A stretch of 63,834 nt of DNA, filler included, from Globobulimina sp. (Eukaryota), in NCBI GenBank assembly GCA_003354225.1. It is 36 parts of 36 records of this genome, joined end to end, with 100 filler letters (N's around TTAATTAATTAA, not from the genome) between each part and the next. Parts side by side here need not be neighbours in the genome. Positions count along the whole stretch, not along the records: positions 23,097 to 24,772 come from PIVH01013255.1; 35 more parts are not named here. One strand, 5' to 3'. Shown in pieces: positions 20,286 through 56,444 of the stretch (positions are counted from its first letter, which is position 1; every line of letters begins with the position of its first letter). Made by a program: the position numbers and the translations under genes. The notes under the pieces are model-generated. The model was given only the letters and a program-made list of their open reading frames with translations, was not told where the DNA came from and searched no databases.

Positions 20286-21220
20286 ATGCTCACTACTAAC
20301 GATAATGTCTCTGTCTCTGACAGCCTCATTCTATGCAAAGGAAATATTTACATTCTCGGATGGTTTAACAATTGGAAGTCACGCTATTGTACATTGTCAA
20401 CATCACGGAAGTTAGAATTTTGGTGTCATTCGGAGCACATCGACAATATTAAGCCAATATTGACAATAGATTTATCGACAGTTATTTCAATCCATGATAA
20501 TATTATACATGATCATGATAATAATAATAATAAATTCACATTTTGTATGGAAACGAAATCAAGCCACAAGTATACGTTTGGCTGCAATAACGAAGATATT
20601 TTGGATCAATGGATTAAACATTTGAATGTTTATGTATTTGGCGATATCATTCATTGTGGATTTATGATAAAACAAGGTCATAATTTTAAAACATGGAAAA
20701 AACGTTGGTTCACATTATCAGCGCATTGGAGGGAATTACGGTATTATGAGAATGAGCATATATCCCATGTTACGTATAAAGGCGCAGTTGATTTATCATT
20801 AGTAAATGTATTGAGATTTGGCGATAAATTAAATTATGGATTCCAATATACGATTGAATTGATATTAACACGGCGTACATATGTATTTGTAAACACATAT
20901 CACGAGAATAGAGAGAAATGGATGAAACAATTTGAAAATGTATTAAAAGGGCAAAATTATTGCTCAATTTGTAAAGATATAAATTCGAGGAATATGGCGA
21001 TGGCGATGAATAAAAGAATATATTATAAAATGAATATAATTTATGAAGGATATTTGAATTTATTTACACCAAATGGGGCATGGAAAGAAAGTTATTATGC
21101 GATTGATGGTAAAACTATGCGTTTATTTTATACAGACACAATCTCAAAAATGGATCAATTTCAAAGTGCGGTTATAAAAAAAGAATATTATGAAAAATAT
21201 ATATCACAACATATGGAAGG
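20286..21220 (+). CDS. Tandem PH-domain protein (2 complete + third partial), 3' partial
   Basis: NWKSRYCTL..DQWIKHL; GFMIKQGHNFKTWKKRWFTL..KGAVDL..EKWMKQF; IYEGYL..WKESY. Confidence 0.9.
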
Positions 21221-21410
21221 NNNNNNNNNNNNNNNNNNNNNNNNNNNNNNNNNNNNNNNNNNNNTTAATTAATTAANNNNNNNNNNNNNNNNNNNNNNNN
21301 NNNNNNNNNNNNNNNNNNNNACCGGTGAAAACATGCAAAACAACGCATAGTTATTCTGTGCGAAATCAGATATTTGAATTTGAATAACTACAGGATCTAG
21401 GATCGTTAAA

Positions 21411-22736
21411 ATGCGTCTCAAAAAAAACAAAAACTTTGAGTTCATGCATCGTCCTTACAACTCCAGAATTACTATGTATCAACGCCTCAGACATTCGCCA
21501 TCGTCATATTTAAATAATATTAAACACAAATGGTGCTTATTTGTATTTGCATTTCTATGCATATGGTTTGTAATGGCAACATACTTTTTATACCGTCCAG
21601 CAGCCAAATTGCAAACAGACACTCTCTCAACACTCTGCACACAAATATCATCCAAACAAAATAACAATGTCATCATACATAACATGTGCTCACTTCTGGA
21701 ACATTTAAAACTGGACACATTCTCCAACAAAGACTGCCATTTCAAACACCCCGTGGAAGGACATTGGGCCATCGGGTGGTTCATGACAATGTTTTACAAA
21801 ATGAGCAAAAACCAACATTGCGGCACTGTCAACATCCACCAATTCCTAACTCAGACTGCGCAGCAAAACCAAAATCAAGACACAAATTCCAAATTCACAG
21901 TGCTAATAAACACATGGCAAAGAAACGAATGTTTGATCAAATCTGTGCAGCATTATCTGTCCTGCAATGATGTGGCACAAATACGGATTATTTGGAGTGA
22001 CAACAACAACGACATACCAACTTATTTGCAGAATTTGCGGACTCAAATCCCAGATCCAAACAGATTAGTTTTTGATGAATATAAAGACAATAAACTGACC
22101 AATCGCTTCAAATATAATAATGAATGGCGCACCGATGCAATATTCCAAACCGATGATGACATAAAATATTCCTGTTCGTTGATAGCAAATGCATTCAAAC
22201 TATGGCAGTTATTTCCGGATTATATGATCGGATTTGCGCCGAGAGAGCCCTTTGAAGAGTACAAAAGTCGGAAAAAGTTGGAAAATCTGAGCAAATATCA
22301 ATTTTATACTTGGGATAAACCATTCAGTAAATGTGAGTATTCGCTCTTGTTTGTGACTTTGGGCGGGTTTATGCATAAGAAATATTATCGAGTGTATGAC
22401 GAGAATAATATCAATGGATGGGACGTGATAAAGGAGTCCGTGAATGGCAATATTACAGCGGAGGATATCTCGATGAGTCTGTTGTATAGTTTTGAGAGTG
22501 GATTGCCTCCGATGGTTGTGACTGTGCCTGAGTCGGAGATGTTGATTGAGGATTTTTTGTACTGTCAAAAAGATAAATCGGTGATAATGCATACGGATTC
22601 CGGTAAGAAGAGGACAAATATTTATATGGATGCTTTGGAGGTGTTGGGATATTATGAGAATACGTTTGATTTACTTGCCTCGAGTTTGTGGGTAGATGTT
22701 ATGCCTTTGTCTCGACAAAAATGCTGGGCCGGTTAA
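21411..22736 (+). CDS. Glycosyltransferase family 64 (exostosin C-terminal/EXTL2-like), type II membrane protein
   Basis: N-terminal TM; FTVLINTWQR, QIRIIWS, LTNRF, TDAIFQTDDDI (DxD), IGFAPR, AEDISMS. Confidence 0.9.
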   Translation: MRLKKNKNFEFMHRPYNSRITMYQRLRHSPSSYLNNIKHKWCLFVFAFLCIWFVMATYFLYRPAAKLQTDTLSTLCTQISSKQNNNVIIHNMCSLLEHLKLDTFSNKDCHFKHPVEGHWAIGWFMTMFYKMSKNQHCGTVNIHQFLTQTAQQNQNQDTNSKFTVLINTWQRNECLIKSVQHYLSCNDVAQIRIIWSDNNNDIPTYLQNLRTQIPDPNRLVFDEYKDNKLTNRFKYNNEWRTDAIFQTDDDIKYSCSLIANAFKLWQLFPDYMIGFAPREPFEEYKSRKKLENLSKYQFYTWDKPFSKCEYSLLFVTLGGFMHKKYYRVYDENNINGWDVIKESVNGNITAEDISMSLLYSFESGLPPMVVTVPESEMLIEDFLYCQKDKSVIMHTDSGKKRTNIYMDALEVLGYYENTFDLLASSLWVDVMPLSRQKCWAG

Positions 22737-23228
22737 CTTAAATTTTATACTCGAAGTTGACCGATGACTAGCTCACTTCAAGAAAATCTTAAATCAGGGT
22801 TCTCACCTCATAGACGACAATTTTTTACCTTTATTGCATAGATTTGTCTCTTCTTTCATATGCCAGAATCCTGGAAAAATCTATCATTGCACTGTCGTCT
22901 GTCGTCTATGAGTAGGTTGAAAACCACTCTAGCTAACCCAAAAACTTTGCTAATCGTTGAAATGAAACGAAACGAAACTAAGCCAAAAAAGTTATANNNN
23001 NNNNNNNNNNNNNNNNNNNNNNNNNNNNNNNNNNNNNNNNTTAATTAATTAANNNNNNNNNNNNNNNNNNNNNNNNNNNNNNNNNNNNNNNNNNNNTCAG
23101 TATTTATAATAATAAGCGATTGTATCATATGGTTTTCTCAATGCTACTCAAATCGTTGTTATTCTGTTTCTGTTTGCATTCAGCTGTTTTTTTTTTAACA
23201 TTTTGCGTCAAAAACATCTTCTTGCACC

Positions 23229-24482
23229 ATGTCCTTAGTCGATAACACTCCAATAACATCGTCTGATGATGATAATGATGTTATCCATGGGAATGAAACC
23301 ATGGGTAATTTCACAGTCACCAATCTCGACGCAAACGAGACTCCACATTCTGATGACAATGATGATATCATCAACGACAACAACAACAACTTCATACAGA
23401 TCCATTACGAAGGCACAATGGAGAAATTCAGCATCACCAACCATCACGAAACATTATCAGATCTACGTCAGCGTATAAACACGCACAGTGACATGGAAAT
23501 GGGTGAATCGCATTATTTTCTATTACCACATAACAATGGCAACAATTATTACGATGAAGACGAGGAAGAATTGATCGCTTCCGGCAGATTAATATCCATT
23601 GATTCTGAACATATTCCATTACATACTTACTCCACAAAAACGATATCCGTTTATTGGAAATCATTTGAGTTACAAGTTTTGGACGGCATTGATTTGGAAT
23701 TAACCCTTCGCGTATCATCAGATTGGACCATTCATAAATTAAAAGAAGAGATCTCCGCCACACAAAATATAAAAATCAATCAGTTATCACATAACGGCAT
23801 GGAATTAATTGACAGCGATACGTTATCGTATCACGGTATAAATAAAACCGGATTTACATTGATATCACGTATCTCCATTACCATCGAAGATATGTCTTGC
23901 GATCTATCCACACAATTATTAATTTGCGAATTTTGGGACTTTGATAAGGTTTTGAGCACATATTTGGATGCTGAACGGAGGGAATTTCATGCGGAGGGAG
24001 CATTTTTTTATAGTGGAAAGAAAATTAATTTAAATGAGCAGGTTTATCAGAACAAGTTGGGCAATTCGAGCAAATTGGAGTATCGGGCCGGGAAATATGA
24101 TGTAAATATTTATGACAGTATTCAGGTGCAAGGGGATGATTTGAATGCAGTGAGGATGGAAGTGTATGATCAATGGACATTGGCTGATGTCAAGAAAGCA
24201 TATTCCAAGAAAACAAAGAAACCGTTTATGGAGAAAGAGAAGTTTTTGTCACAGGAACGGGAGTTGGAGGACGATGTTTCATTATGGAAGTTGAGGATTG
24301 CTGATAATGAGAAGTTGATAATACAGAGGGAACAGCAGGAGGTCAGTGTGGAATATATTTGTTGCGAATGTGGCTCCAAAGTCATTTTGAGGAGATACGA
24401 TTCGGTGCAATGTAGGCAATGTTTTCATGGCGCTGTCTATAAACAGAGAACAAAAAGAGTTTGCCAATATTCTTGCAGATGA
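23229..24482 (+). CDS. Multi-ubiquitin-like-domain protein fused to C-terminal RNA polymerase I/II/III subunit Rpb12 (RPABC4) zinc ribbon
   Basis: LTLRVSSDWTIHKLKEEI...LSHNGMELIDSDTLSYHGI and MEVYDQWTLADVKKAY...ELEDDVSLWKLRI Ubl units; C-terminus VEYICCECGSKVILRRYDSVQCRQCFHGAVYKQRTKRVCQYSCR*. Confidence 0.85.
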   Translation: MSLVDNTPITSSDDDNDVIHGNETMGNFTVTNLDANETPHSDDNDDIINDNNNNFIQIHYEGTMEKFSITNHHETLSDLRQRINTHSDMEMGESHYFLLPHNNGNNYYDEDEEELIASGRLISIDSEHIPLHTYSTKTISVYWKSFELQVLDGIDLELTLRVSSDWTIHKLKEEISATQNIKINQLSHNGMELIDSDTLSYHGINKTGFTLISRISITIEDMSCDLSTQLLICEFWDFDKVLSTYLDAERREFHAEGAFFYSGKKINLNEQVYQNKLGNSSKLEYRAGKYDVNIYDSIQVQGDDLNAVRMEVYDQWTLADVKKAYSKKTKKPFMEKEKFLSQERELEDDVSLWKLRIADNEKLIIQREQQEVSVEYICCECGSKVILRRYDSVQCRQCFHGAVYKQRTKRVCQYSCR

Positions 24483-24632
24483 ATTGCATGAGGGTTTATT
24501 TATTATTTTATTTATTCAATTTAGGTGTTTGGTAATTTTAATTTTTTATCCTTGCGCTCAGTGCGTAATGTTTTTACAAAAACGAGTGTTGTTACAAGTT
24601 ACAACTGACCTTAAATATAATAGTATTTTACC

Positions 24633-24772
24633 AAAAGGCAGTAATTTCGTGGCTAGAAACGTGTTTCCAAAAAACAGTTTTTAGGGTCAAGGGGCGCGCC
24701 CTTGTGGCGCCCCGAGCCCTTAACAACTGTTTTTTGGAAACACGTTTATAGCAGACAATAAACCTGCCTTTT
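24633..24772. repeat. Nested imperfect inverted repeat (about 140-bp hairpin; MITE- or structured-RNA-like)
   Basis: AAAAGGCAG/CTGCCTTTT outer arms; perfect 23-bp arms 24657-24679 and 24725-24747; inner GGGGCGC/GCGCCCC. Confidence 0.85.
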
Positions 24773-25026: not shown

Positions 25027-26430
25027 ATGGCTCACTTTGACGTCGATATGAACGAAAGAATCATCAATGAAGAATACAAAGTTTTGTTGTCCGCAATGAT
25101 ATCTTATCTACCAATTCTTTTGTAATCGGTAAACAACATAAAACTCCTAATTCAACTTTGCTCCTTGCACTTACAATTACAAAATAAACAGTTATGGAAA
25201 AAAAACTCACCGTTTTTATACGATATAATATTATCCTCCACATTAGAATGGCCCTCATTGACCGTGGAATGGCTACCAGACAAAAAATTAGTTACCGACT
25301 CCAACGATATCGACTATTCCATCCAACGGCTAATACTCTCCACACACACAAACGGCACCGAACAGGATTACTTACTCATCGCTCAAATAAAATTACCAAC
25401 CATCGACCCCAAGAAACTAAGTGAAAAATACAAGCATTCGTGCGATGTGTACGGTGGTTTTGGCGGCGCCGCCGGCAAATTTGAAATCATTCAAAAAATA
25501 CCGCATAACGGCGAAGCAAACCGTGCGCGATATATGCCACACAACGCCAACGTCATAGCGACAAAGACTGATATCGGACATGTCAACGTTTTCGACCGTA
25601 GAAAATACACAAATAAGCCCTCAAAAAACAGTACGTGTAAACCGACATTGACATTGCGAGGACATGCAAAGGGCGAAGGATATGGTTTGGAATGGAACAA
25701 ATATCGCGAAGGTTATTTATTGTCCTCTTCTGACGATGGAACGATATGTTTATGGGACATCAAACAAACGACCAGCGACACACTGCATATATTTAAGCCG
25801 CACAACAATAACAACAATGGGAAGACCAATGGCATTGAGGACATTTCATGGCATCAACGCGGGAATGGCTGCGGTGACATATTTGCGTCGGTGGGCGATG
25901 ACAAATGCATAAGTTTATGGGATTTGCGCAATGGAAACGCAAATAATATGAAACCGATTGGGATTAAAAAAAATGCACATAAATCCGGCATAAATTGTGT
26001 GGAGTTTTCGCCGTTTAATGAACATTTGTTGATAACGGGCGGCGGAGATAACAGTGTTTGTTTGTGGGATAAGCGTAATTTGGATAAGAAGTTGCATTCA
26101 TTGGAAGGACATTCGGATGAAATTTTCAGGGTTTCGTGGAGTCCGCATAGCGAAGTACATTTAGCGAGTTCGTCGGCGGATCGTCGCGTTATGATTTGGG
26201 ATTTGTCGCAGATTGGACACGAACAGGCCTCGGATGAAGCGGAGGATGGTCCGCCGGAATTGATGTTCATTCACGGCGGGCATAGAGGCGGAGTGACGGA
26301 TTTTTCATGGAATAAAAACGATCCTTGGGTCATTGTGAGCATTGCGGCAAACAATGTTATGCAATGTTGGCAAATGACTGATGAGTTACTTACTTTTGAT
26401 GATTGTTCTGCGCATGTTCAGTTAGAATAA
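25027..26430 (+). CDS. RBBP4: Histone-binding WD40 protein RBBP4/RBBP7/MSI1 (CAF-1 small subunit); intron 25081-25191
   Basis: ERIINEEYK|LWKKNSPFLYD..LEWPSLTVEWLP; NRARYMP; WD repeats; EDGPPELMFIHGGH. Confidence 0.96.
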
Positions 26431-55059: not shown

Positions 55060-56444
55060 CAATTGTTCCACTGATCATATTTTCATCTTTTACACATTTC
55101 TCCTGTGCCGTGCCTCTTTTTCTCTTAATGACAACAATAAGAATTACCAGTATACAAATTGTAACAACAACAGCTCCAATCATTATCAATGTAAATGGAT
55201 TACTCAGTACACTCAATAAATTGAATTTATTTATTCCTCCATCTTCAGATCTACTCTCTGTATTTATATACATTTGAGAGGTTGAGATCTGCACAGCGGC
55301 TTCATACAATTTTATTTCTACATTATCTCCAAATTGCACTGTATATTATATTATACGTACATATAATACAGATATTAGCATGTAATATGATGCATGTACA
55401 GTACCTGTTAATTGATTCTCTGTCACCGCGATTAATCTTTCTTCATTAATTTCAACATCGCCACTGTATATTATCACTATTAGTATCACTAACAACAAAC
55501 AACTTTATTTCATGTTGATCAGTTAAATTAGAAAGAAAATTGTTAGTTGAGTTAGTCACTACATTTATTATACTTTGCGAATTCACATCATTTTCATCTA
55601 TATCGATTTCTATAGTAACATGGACTGAATTGCCATTGTCATTGTCATGCGCTGATGGTGGCTCAGTAGGAAACACAGTTGTATTAATAGACCCATTTGT
55701 GGGTAATATGGCCGTCGGATTTGTAGTTGGCTTATTTGAAGGATTCGCAGTTTGATATTTTGTGGGATTATGGGAAGGGTTAATGGTAGGATTCTGTGAT
55801 GGAATGATGGTGGGATATTTGGTGGGATTATTTGAAGGGTTATAAGTCGGACTACCTGTCGTGTTTAGTATTGGAGTCCCCCAAATTTGAATATTATCCC
55901 AATAACAATGGTCTTTAATTTTGTCAGTGCCGTCAGTTTGAGATAATTGAATTTCAAATGATGTTTGATCTTCAGCTGAATTAGAACTTATAGCAACATC
56001 AAAATGTCGAAGATAAACCTCCTGAAATTCAGTAGAAAATGCGATTGAAAATGAAGGAGAAGCGCTGCTTTTCCATAGAACCTGGCAATTACCATTCATC
56101 AGCACAATATAAGTCTTAATATTCAATCAACAATCAAGTTGTCAATATGTGTATGCGATATTAATATAATTAATATAGTGTACTAAACCAAAGTAAATTT
56201 GAATCGACTGATAATTGGTGGTTGTTACCATTTGCGTTGCGGTACTTCTGTCTAATAAGTCACAACATGAGGAAGGTAAGGACGGGCAGTTTGTTTGGTT
56301 GACTATATCCATGCGTTTACCAGATATTGTCCATCCATCTAATGAGCTACAATTGAAACTGTATAATAGTTGTTGTGCGTTGGCAGTATAATGAAGAATC
56401 ACCACATTGCTGAGAATTAGAAAAATCATTCTACAGATTGACAA
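55060..56444 (-). CDS. Type I surface protein with PT/PS mucin-like repeats, intron-split, 3' partial
   Basis: Signal peptide; PTYNPSNNPTKYPTIIPSQNPT repeats; TM LIMIGAVVVTICILVILIVVI-KRKR. Confidence 0.7.

Follow-up and report, generated by a model that had tools for sequence, protein, structure and literature searches.

The stretch of DNA analysed here, 63,834 nucleotides of a Globobulimina sp. assembly (GCA_003354225.1) and hereafter called the window, carries at positions 23229-24482 of the + strand a single open reading frame (ORF) that runs from ATG to TGA, uninterrupted and without an intron, over 417 codons. The predicted protein consists of an acidic leader, four ubiquitin-like (Ubl) domains and a C-terminal zinc ribbon that corresponds in sequence to Rpb12 (also named RPABC4 or ABC10alpha), a small subunit of the nuclear RNA polymerases. 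The features of this gene, with positions in the window, residues of the protein in amino acids (aa) and the basis of each assignment, are the following.

23229..24482, + strand: complete ORF without introns, 417 aa and a TGA stop codon, encoding the fusion of four Ubl units with Rpb12; the alignment with homologues reaches from Met1 to the final Arg, and 31 of the 40 listed differences from sequencing contigs are synonymous.
23229..23387, + strand: acidic leader, predicted to be disordered, aa 1-53, with the short conserved motifs TPxTSSD, GGFTETxLD and TPxSD; composition, predicted local distance difference test (pLDDT) below 50, alignment.
23388..23657, + strand: Ubl unit 1, aa 54-143, a predicted beta-grasp with the acidic loop insertion EDEEEL.ASGRL; DSSP pattern, pLDDT 79-96, part of the match to tetra-ubiquitin, with only a weak DWNN hint from Pfam.
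23664..23867, + strand: Ubl unit 2, aa 146-213, of the four the closest to ubiquitin; PF00240 at 30.0 bits on the segment, and polyubiquitins match this part of the family profile.
23871..24089, + strand: Ubl unit 3, aa 215-287, a divergent predicted beta-grasp; pLDDT of about 98 in the AlphaFold2 model and the Foldseek alignment with tetra-ubiquitin, with no Pfam match.
24096..24329, + strand: Ubl unit 4, aa 290-367, which, joined to the ribbon, makes up the core module conserved throughout the family; PF00240 at 23.9 bits, PF11976 at 21.3 bits, and relatives matched by a unit-4 hidden Markov model (HMM).
24330..24347, + strand: linker EQQEVS, at the place of the RGG tail of ubiquitin and without a di-Gly; sequence, alignment, and 0/75 relatives with Gly-Gly within 15 aa before the ribbon.
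24348..24479, + strand: Rpb12/RPABC4 zinc ribbon and C-terminal tail, aa 374-417, with CxxC-x13-CxxC, YKQRTKR and a terminal R; PF03604 at 32.9 bits and end-to-end alignment with Rpb12 chains of the PDB.

The C-terminal 44 aa are Rpb12 by every sequence test applied. The family PF03604 (Zn_ribbon_RPAB4) was matched by the whole protein at residues 376-407 with 27.6 bits (cut-off 24), and the last 50 aa alone gave the higher score listed above, with an E-value of 5e-8. The zinc ligands C378, C381, C395 and C398, the YKQRTKR segment and the terminal R417 are all present. Further analysis with a profile built from the window protein and its 8 closest relatives, searched against all PDB chain sequences, showed that the twelve best chains were all Rpb12/RPABC4 subunits of solved polymerases, including the plant chain 8hil_L (E 3.9e-10), 7eu0_L, the yeast chains 3j0k_L and 1i3q_L (5.8e-9) and 28jc_L, which is labelled RPABC4. 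Profile positions 381/386-429 align with the Rpb12 chains of RNA polymerase (Pol) II up to the last residue, with E-values from 3.9e-10 to 1e-5, and the alignment spans from just before the first CxxC to the final residue of both partners. The ribosomal protein L40E reached an E-value of only 0.81 in the same search, and neither PF01020 nor PF01599 (L40e, S27a) was matched in the Pfam scan of the whole protein. The window protein therefore has in common with Rpb12 the CxxC-x13-CxxC ribbon, the YK.RT.R segment and the terminal Arg, and it shares all of the features by which Rpb12 is defined in sequence; it departs from that definition only in not being a small free polypeptide of 46-76 aa, since in its 417 aa the ribbon is preceded by a leader and four Ubl domains that together amount to about 370 aa.

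The ribbon also carries additional cysteines. Across aa 376-417 of the window protein and in the relatives P0002-P0026, a second Cys is kept in YICCEC and two are kept in the tail CQY(S/N)CR. The corresponding tail reads PCQYLAR in a large clade of distant relatives and VQ(Y/F)EAR in canonical Rpb12. It is conceivable that the extra cysteines form a second metal site or a disulfide.

The region ahead of the ribbon is recognized as ubiquitin-like by both profile and structure searches. The whole protein scored 42.8 bits against the Pfam ubiquitin family PF00240 (cut-off 25.4) and 32.5 bits against Rad60-SLD, PF11976 (cut-off 23.8). When the units were scanned singly, unit 2 passed the PF00240 cut-off and unit 4 fell just below it, unit 1 gave only the DWNN hint (E 0.17), and unit 3 had no Pfam match. 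An AlphaFold2 model computed from 68 family members (pLDDT 88.4, predicted template modelling score 0.75), which superseded an earlier and poor model from 9 sequences (pLDDT 58.3), shows four beta-beta-alpha-beta-beta-beta units at about residues 54-143, 146-213, 215-287 and 290-367, followed by the ribbon at 374-417. The best Foldseek match of this model in the PDB is linear tetra-ubiquitin (7yui_A, E 6.5e-21, 335 columns, a chain of 305 residues), the same top match that the poorer model had already given, and the matches ranking after it are further tetra-, tri- and di-ubiquitins, the HUBL array of USP7 (E about 1e-10) and ISG15. As modelled, the N-terminal array is thus four ubiquitin folds and not three.

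The leader contains 13 Asp or Glu and no Lys or Arg in aa 1-53, and residues 1-46 were modelled as disordered with pLDDT below 50. Its motifs TPxTSSDxD, GGFTETxLD and TPxSD (within 23229-23387) are kept among close relatives and look like linear docking or phosphorylation motifs.

The C-terminus of ubiquitin reads LRLRGG. At this position the end of unit 4 reads LIIQREQQEV and is directly followed by the ribbon, and there is no Gly-Gly anywhere in the 417-aa protein. A Gly-Gly within 15 residues upstream of the ribbon is likewise found in 0/75 relatives. Instead, a linker pattern h-x-h-x-R-E-D-x-x-Q is common across the family, and in the AlphaFold2 model the conserved linker prolongs the last strand of unit 4. 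To judge from these sequences, a cleavage site of the ubiquitin type is lacking in the fusion.

The first-pass annotation, which was made from the sequence alone, had described an intronless ORF of 417 aa at 23229-24482 with an acidic leader, 3-4 divergent Ubl units, a last 45 aa matching Rpb12/RPABC4 and no di-Gly before the Rpb12 part. The ORF was recovered exactly as described, on the + strand and uninterrupted, and the acidic leader was confirmed by its composition and low pLDDT. The number of Ubl units was resolved to four by the AlphaFold2 model and the match to tetra-ubiquitin, and the three Pfam families proposed for a scan (PF03604, PF00240 and PF11976) all scored above their cut-offs in the whole protein. 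The match to the Rpb12 profile, on which that annotation had made its reading depend, held at the C-terminus, where it is joined by the end-to-end PDB alignment over 44 aa. The absence of a di-Gly was found to extend to the whole protein and to the region ahead of the ribbon in all 75 relatives.

A word-indexed protein search found 8 relatives with 50-61% identity, and precomputed annotation lists PF00240 together with PF03604 in 6/8 of these. The other two are P0009, which is truncated, and P0006, whose tail diverges after the second CxxC, so that an intact ribbon ends 7/9 rows of the alignment of the window protein with its 8 relatives. P0006, a 470-aa protein from an ENA contig, continues as unrelated sequence once the second CxxC is passed, as would result if the contig contained a frameshift or an intron left unspliced. 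A cluster look-up of 24 proteins identified P0003, P0010 and P0030 as foraminiferal EukProt proteins and one further member as an MMETSP transcript. The architecture of the window protein recurs, with about 60% identity, in EukProt proteins of Bolivina argentea and Nonionella stella. For both species, polyA-selected transcriptomes and metatranscriptomes from field-collected specimens are described in the part of the source drawn on here (PMC8153729), and we infer that the two EukProt sets derive from that work.

Beyond the foraminifera, the profile of the window protein and its 8 relatives was searched exhaustively against 1.84 billion representatives and gave 233 matches at E<=1e-3, of which 80 were at <=1e-10 and 22 at <=1e-30. 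The better matches are mostly 200-500 aa long and align from units 2-4 through profile position 429 at their own C-terminus, and polyubiquitins and free Rpb12s surface only from about 55 bits downward. A C-terminal CxxC-x(10-20)-CxxC ribbon preceded by no fewer than 100 residues is present in 75 of 160 stored proteins; three of these 75 (P0133, P0146 and P0154) matched the profile at the ribbon alone. Among 40 distant members, PF03604 was matched at E<=1e-3 in 40/40, PF00240 in 25/40 and PF11976 in 21/40. Moreover, HMMs built from the foraminiferal units placed a Ubl unit and then the ribbon in 78/167 stored proteins. The domain adjoining the ribbon was mostly matched by the unit-4 HMM, and polyubiquitins were claimed by the unit-2 HMM. 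The module of Ubl4, linker and ribbon is therefore homologous across the family rather than the product of independent ubiquitin fusions. It occurs in dozens of clusters at <=50% identity among eukaryotic sequences, and within the family the ribbon shows the strongest conservation. The earlier framing of the fusion as a rhizarian peculiarity was therefore too narrow, given these dozens of other eukaryotic clusters.

A tree was calculated from the last 135 residues of 76 rows, leaving aside P0133, P0146, P0154, P0159 and P0016; with so few columns, many of its forks are unresolved. The window protein falls in a clade with the named foraminifera (support 100/99), inside a clade of 17 rows (97/87), and the tails of a 46-row clade (95/84) end in QYLAR. 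Annotation by the Joint Genome Institute names three members of the large clades RPABC4 or RPC12/RpoP. A profile word search with a more diverse alignment of the family returned 7 proteins only. Scans of viral and prokaryotic genome contig collections with patterns from a clade alignment gave no relative, and metagenome contigs scanned with patterns from P0061 and P0001 gave pattern matches, none of which was a relative. At the sensitivity of the patterns scanned, nothing points to a giant-virus or prokaryotic source.

The fusion gene has assembly gaps, seen as runs of N, to its left and right (22998-23096 and from 24774 onward), and the junction between unit 4 and the ribbon therefore needed independent support. 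Nine sequencing runs matched the locus and the contigs of four were compared; such contigs show presence only. Contigs of run X6 cover 24295-24540 and 23598-24319 and a contig of run X7 covers 23790-24482, so that the boundary between unit 4 and the ribbon is bridged in both runs, with more than 31 letters on each side. Each of these two runs belongs to a different study, and neither study is the one behind X1, the likely source run. A contig of run X3 (24039-24372) ends 25 letters beyond the linker and was not counted as bridging, and X1 is without a contig over 24220-24331, which proves nothing. The differences between contigs and window fall at codon position 3 in 33/40 cases and are synonymous in 31/40 when applied singly (40 listed of 74), which is the pattern that purifying selection leaves in a gene read in this frame. 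The junction, for which independent reads or transcripts had been called for, is thus bridged by contigs of two independent studies and also present in foraminiferal transcriptome proteins.

These results suggest that the gene is probably the organism's own version of Rpb12, made as one permanent polypeptide with an acidic tail and a four-Ubl array. The ribbon part would take the place that Rpb12 normally has in the Rpb3 subassembly. The Ubl array would not be removable by C-terminal hydrolases of the ubiquitin type, because there is no Gly-Gly for them, and would stay attached and project from the enzyme surface. Sterically, such an outward arm is plausible: the segment that precedes the ribbon in free Rpb12 differs from chain to chain in both length and sequence and, in the solved chains of 46-76 aa, lies mostly beyond the alignment. 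In the parts of PMC8136413 drawn on here, Rpb12 is described as one of five subunits common to the three nuclear RNA polymerases, Pol I, II and III, as a member of the Rpb3 subassembly with Rpb3, Rpb10 and Rpb11, and as a subunit whose availability is limiting for polymerase assembly. Because Rpb12 is shared and limiting for assembly in this description (PMC8136413), the most economical role for the arm, and the most likely one, would be that of a built-in folding or assembly handle for a small limiting zinc-ribbon subunit, that of a docking platform on the polymerase, or both. The fusion would then be an uncleaved counterpart of the ribosomal ubiquitin-L40 and ubiquitin-S27a fusions. An uncleaved Ubl-extended Rpb12 was one of the two readings offered by the first-pass annotation, and it is supported in sequence by the Rpb12 profile and PDB matches, by the missing di-Gly and by a non-Gly linker in 75/75 relatives.

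A more far-reaching form of this reading is quite possible, if short of probable: the foraminifera, together with a broad set of other eukaryotes, may have no free Rpb12, and every Pol I, II and III in them may carry a permanent arm of two to four Ubl domains as a platform common to all nuclear transcription, on which assembly, recruitment or turnover could rely. It is also possible that foraminifera have two fused paralogues that share out the polymerases.

Several observations weigh against a permanent Ubl-extended Rpb12. The bridging contigs differ from the window by ~4-6.5% (9/246, 47/722 and 39/693 letters) and therefore come from a relative or a divergent allele, and the label 'RNA?' of the bridging runs X6 and X7 is a guess. 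Unit 2 carries an invariant Ser in close relatives at what we take, from ubiquitin numbering, to be the Ile44 position, and the units are therefore not plain ubiquitin mimics. In the ribbon, a Phe replaces the canonical Rpb12 Gly after the second CxxC, and the extra cysteines of YICCEC and CQYSCR set the foraminiferal clade, the window protein included, apart from canonical Rpb12. Placement of the fusion protein inside the polymerase is inferred from sequence. Finally, the N. stella set contains two different fusions, P0010 (422 aa) and P0030 (398 aa), which fall in separate supported clades.

The last of these points, and the changes in the ribbon, could also be read as signs of a specialised paralogue that exists beside a normal free Rpb12, with the fused copy restricted to a single polymerase, a single life stage or a variant enzyme, much as plant Pol IV and Pol V use their own subunit paralogues. 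This is the alternative that survives best, and we consider it unlikely rather than improbable. It is favoured by the two distinct N. stella fusions, P0010 in the 100/99 clade and the divergent P0030 in a 5-row clade (96/85), and by the lineage-specific Phe and Cys changes. Both N. stella proteins have the C-Q-Y-x-C-R tail typical of the foraminiferal group, and the pair could be true paralogues or could include a second organism in the field sample, given the field-collected material described in the part of PMC8153729 drawn on here. The ribbon is also the best conserved part of the family, as is expected of an essential core subunit. A search for a free Rpb12 among proteins of 27-88 aa (50-aa ribbon query, three shared 5-residue words) found no candidate; this argues only weakly against a paralogue, since the search reaches close relatives only and is not evidence of absence. 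Within the window, tblastn with seven Rpb12 tails found no second ribbon, and only 24330-24479 was matched. A separate weak tblastn match at 56353-56430 on the - strand (E 0.04-0.6) lies in an ORF without the ribbon motif and was read as chance.

It is improbable that the fusion is a precursor whose array is cut off by a protease that acts independently of Gly-Gly and frees a small Rpb12, the Ubl part being a transient chaperone. Such a precursor would have an analogy in ubiquitin fused to the small zinc-binding ribosomal proteins (Ub-L40, Ub-S27a), fusions of this kind are the protein-atlas neighbours of P0001 and P0039 (scores 0.76-0.81, at the level of a lead only), and the linker motif is kept across the family. 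On the other hand, neither the protein nor any of the 75 relatives has a Gly-Gly ahead of the ribbon, the conserved linker is modelled as an extension of unit 4's last strand, and four divergent and separately conserved units exceed what a transient tag would need. An assembly chimera or dead gene, in which unrelated coding pieces were misjoined next to the N gaps, could draw on those gaps and on the missing X1 contig over the junction, but is excluded by the bridging contigs of two other studies, the mostly synonymous substitutions, and the same architecture in named transcriptome proteins and dozens of independent clusters.

The permanent Ubl-Rpb12 fusion that we favour has partial parallels in known systems. 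Ub-L40 (UBA52) and Ub-S27a (RPS27A) likewise join an N-terminal ubiquitin fold and a small zinc-binding subunit of a nucleic-acid machine in one ORF. In these proteins one true ubiquitin ends in Gly-Gly and is cleaved off, whereas the window protein has four divergent units, no Gly-Gly, and a polymerase subunit instead of a ribosomal partner. Several ubiquitin folds in one chain are also found in the HUBL domains of USP7, in ISG15, in FAT10 and in the SUMO-like domains of Rad60, but in none of them is the C-terminal part a polymerase subunit. Gly-Gly is the C-terminus of both ISG15 and FAT10, which are conjugated; compared with the ubiquitin family as a whole, the window protein has the beta-grasp fold, as modelled, and lacks the C-terminal Gly-Gly.

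From the rhizarian Bigelowiella natans and the cryptophyte Guillardia theta, ubiquitin units fused in frame to other proteins have been described (PMC6332867), and Tables 1-2 of that paper include proteins of 273, 199 and 145 aa in which one or two ubiquitin units precede a 'zinc ring finger' or 'zinc ring finger-like' partner. Proteins of such sizes are also present in the Ubl-Rpb12 family, and both the sizes and the layout of these fusions would fit its short members. A term search of the text of PMC6332867 gave 0 occurrences of RNA polymerase, Rpb12 or RPABC4. The literature searched yielded no account of Rpb12 joined to a ubiquitin-like domain. The parts are familiar; their permanent combination on a core polymerase subunit, and the breadth of that combination, are absent from this literature.

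The neighbouring genes, all on the + strand, encode a PH-domain protein at 20286-21272, a GT64 glycosyltransferase at 21411-22736 and a WD40 protein at 25534-26430, and have no evident link to the Ubl-Rpb12 fusion. Just 3' of the fusion gene, at 24612-24770, lies a G+C-rich palindromic element between inverted A/T-rich arms. The contig depth of run X1 is 96-235 over this element and 2-14 across the fusion gene, and several contigs break or rearrange at it, with joints at 24651/24720 and 24663/24711. Its 22-nt core has a single occurrence within the window. The element looks like a multi-copy repeat resembling a miniature inverted-repeat transposable element. Upstream of the fusion gene, one X1 contig has a 4-base insertion at 23130.

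Some members of this family already bear the label 'RPABC4' from automatic annotation. Once the taxa that carry it have been named, the fusion may serve as a rare genomic character in deep eukaryote phylogeny. If the fusion is the working subunit, it would be a natural, uncleaved counterpart of the fusions between ubiquitin and ribosomal proteins and, if this is true, it would offer a handle for studying how ubiquitin folds help in the assembly or regulation of large nucleic-acid machines. Moreover, whole eukaryotic lineages would then carry out all of their nuclear transcription with about 40 kDa of ubiquitin-fold domains on the core of the enzyme.

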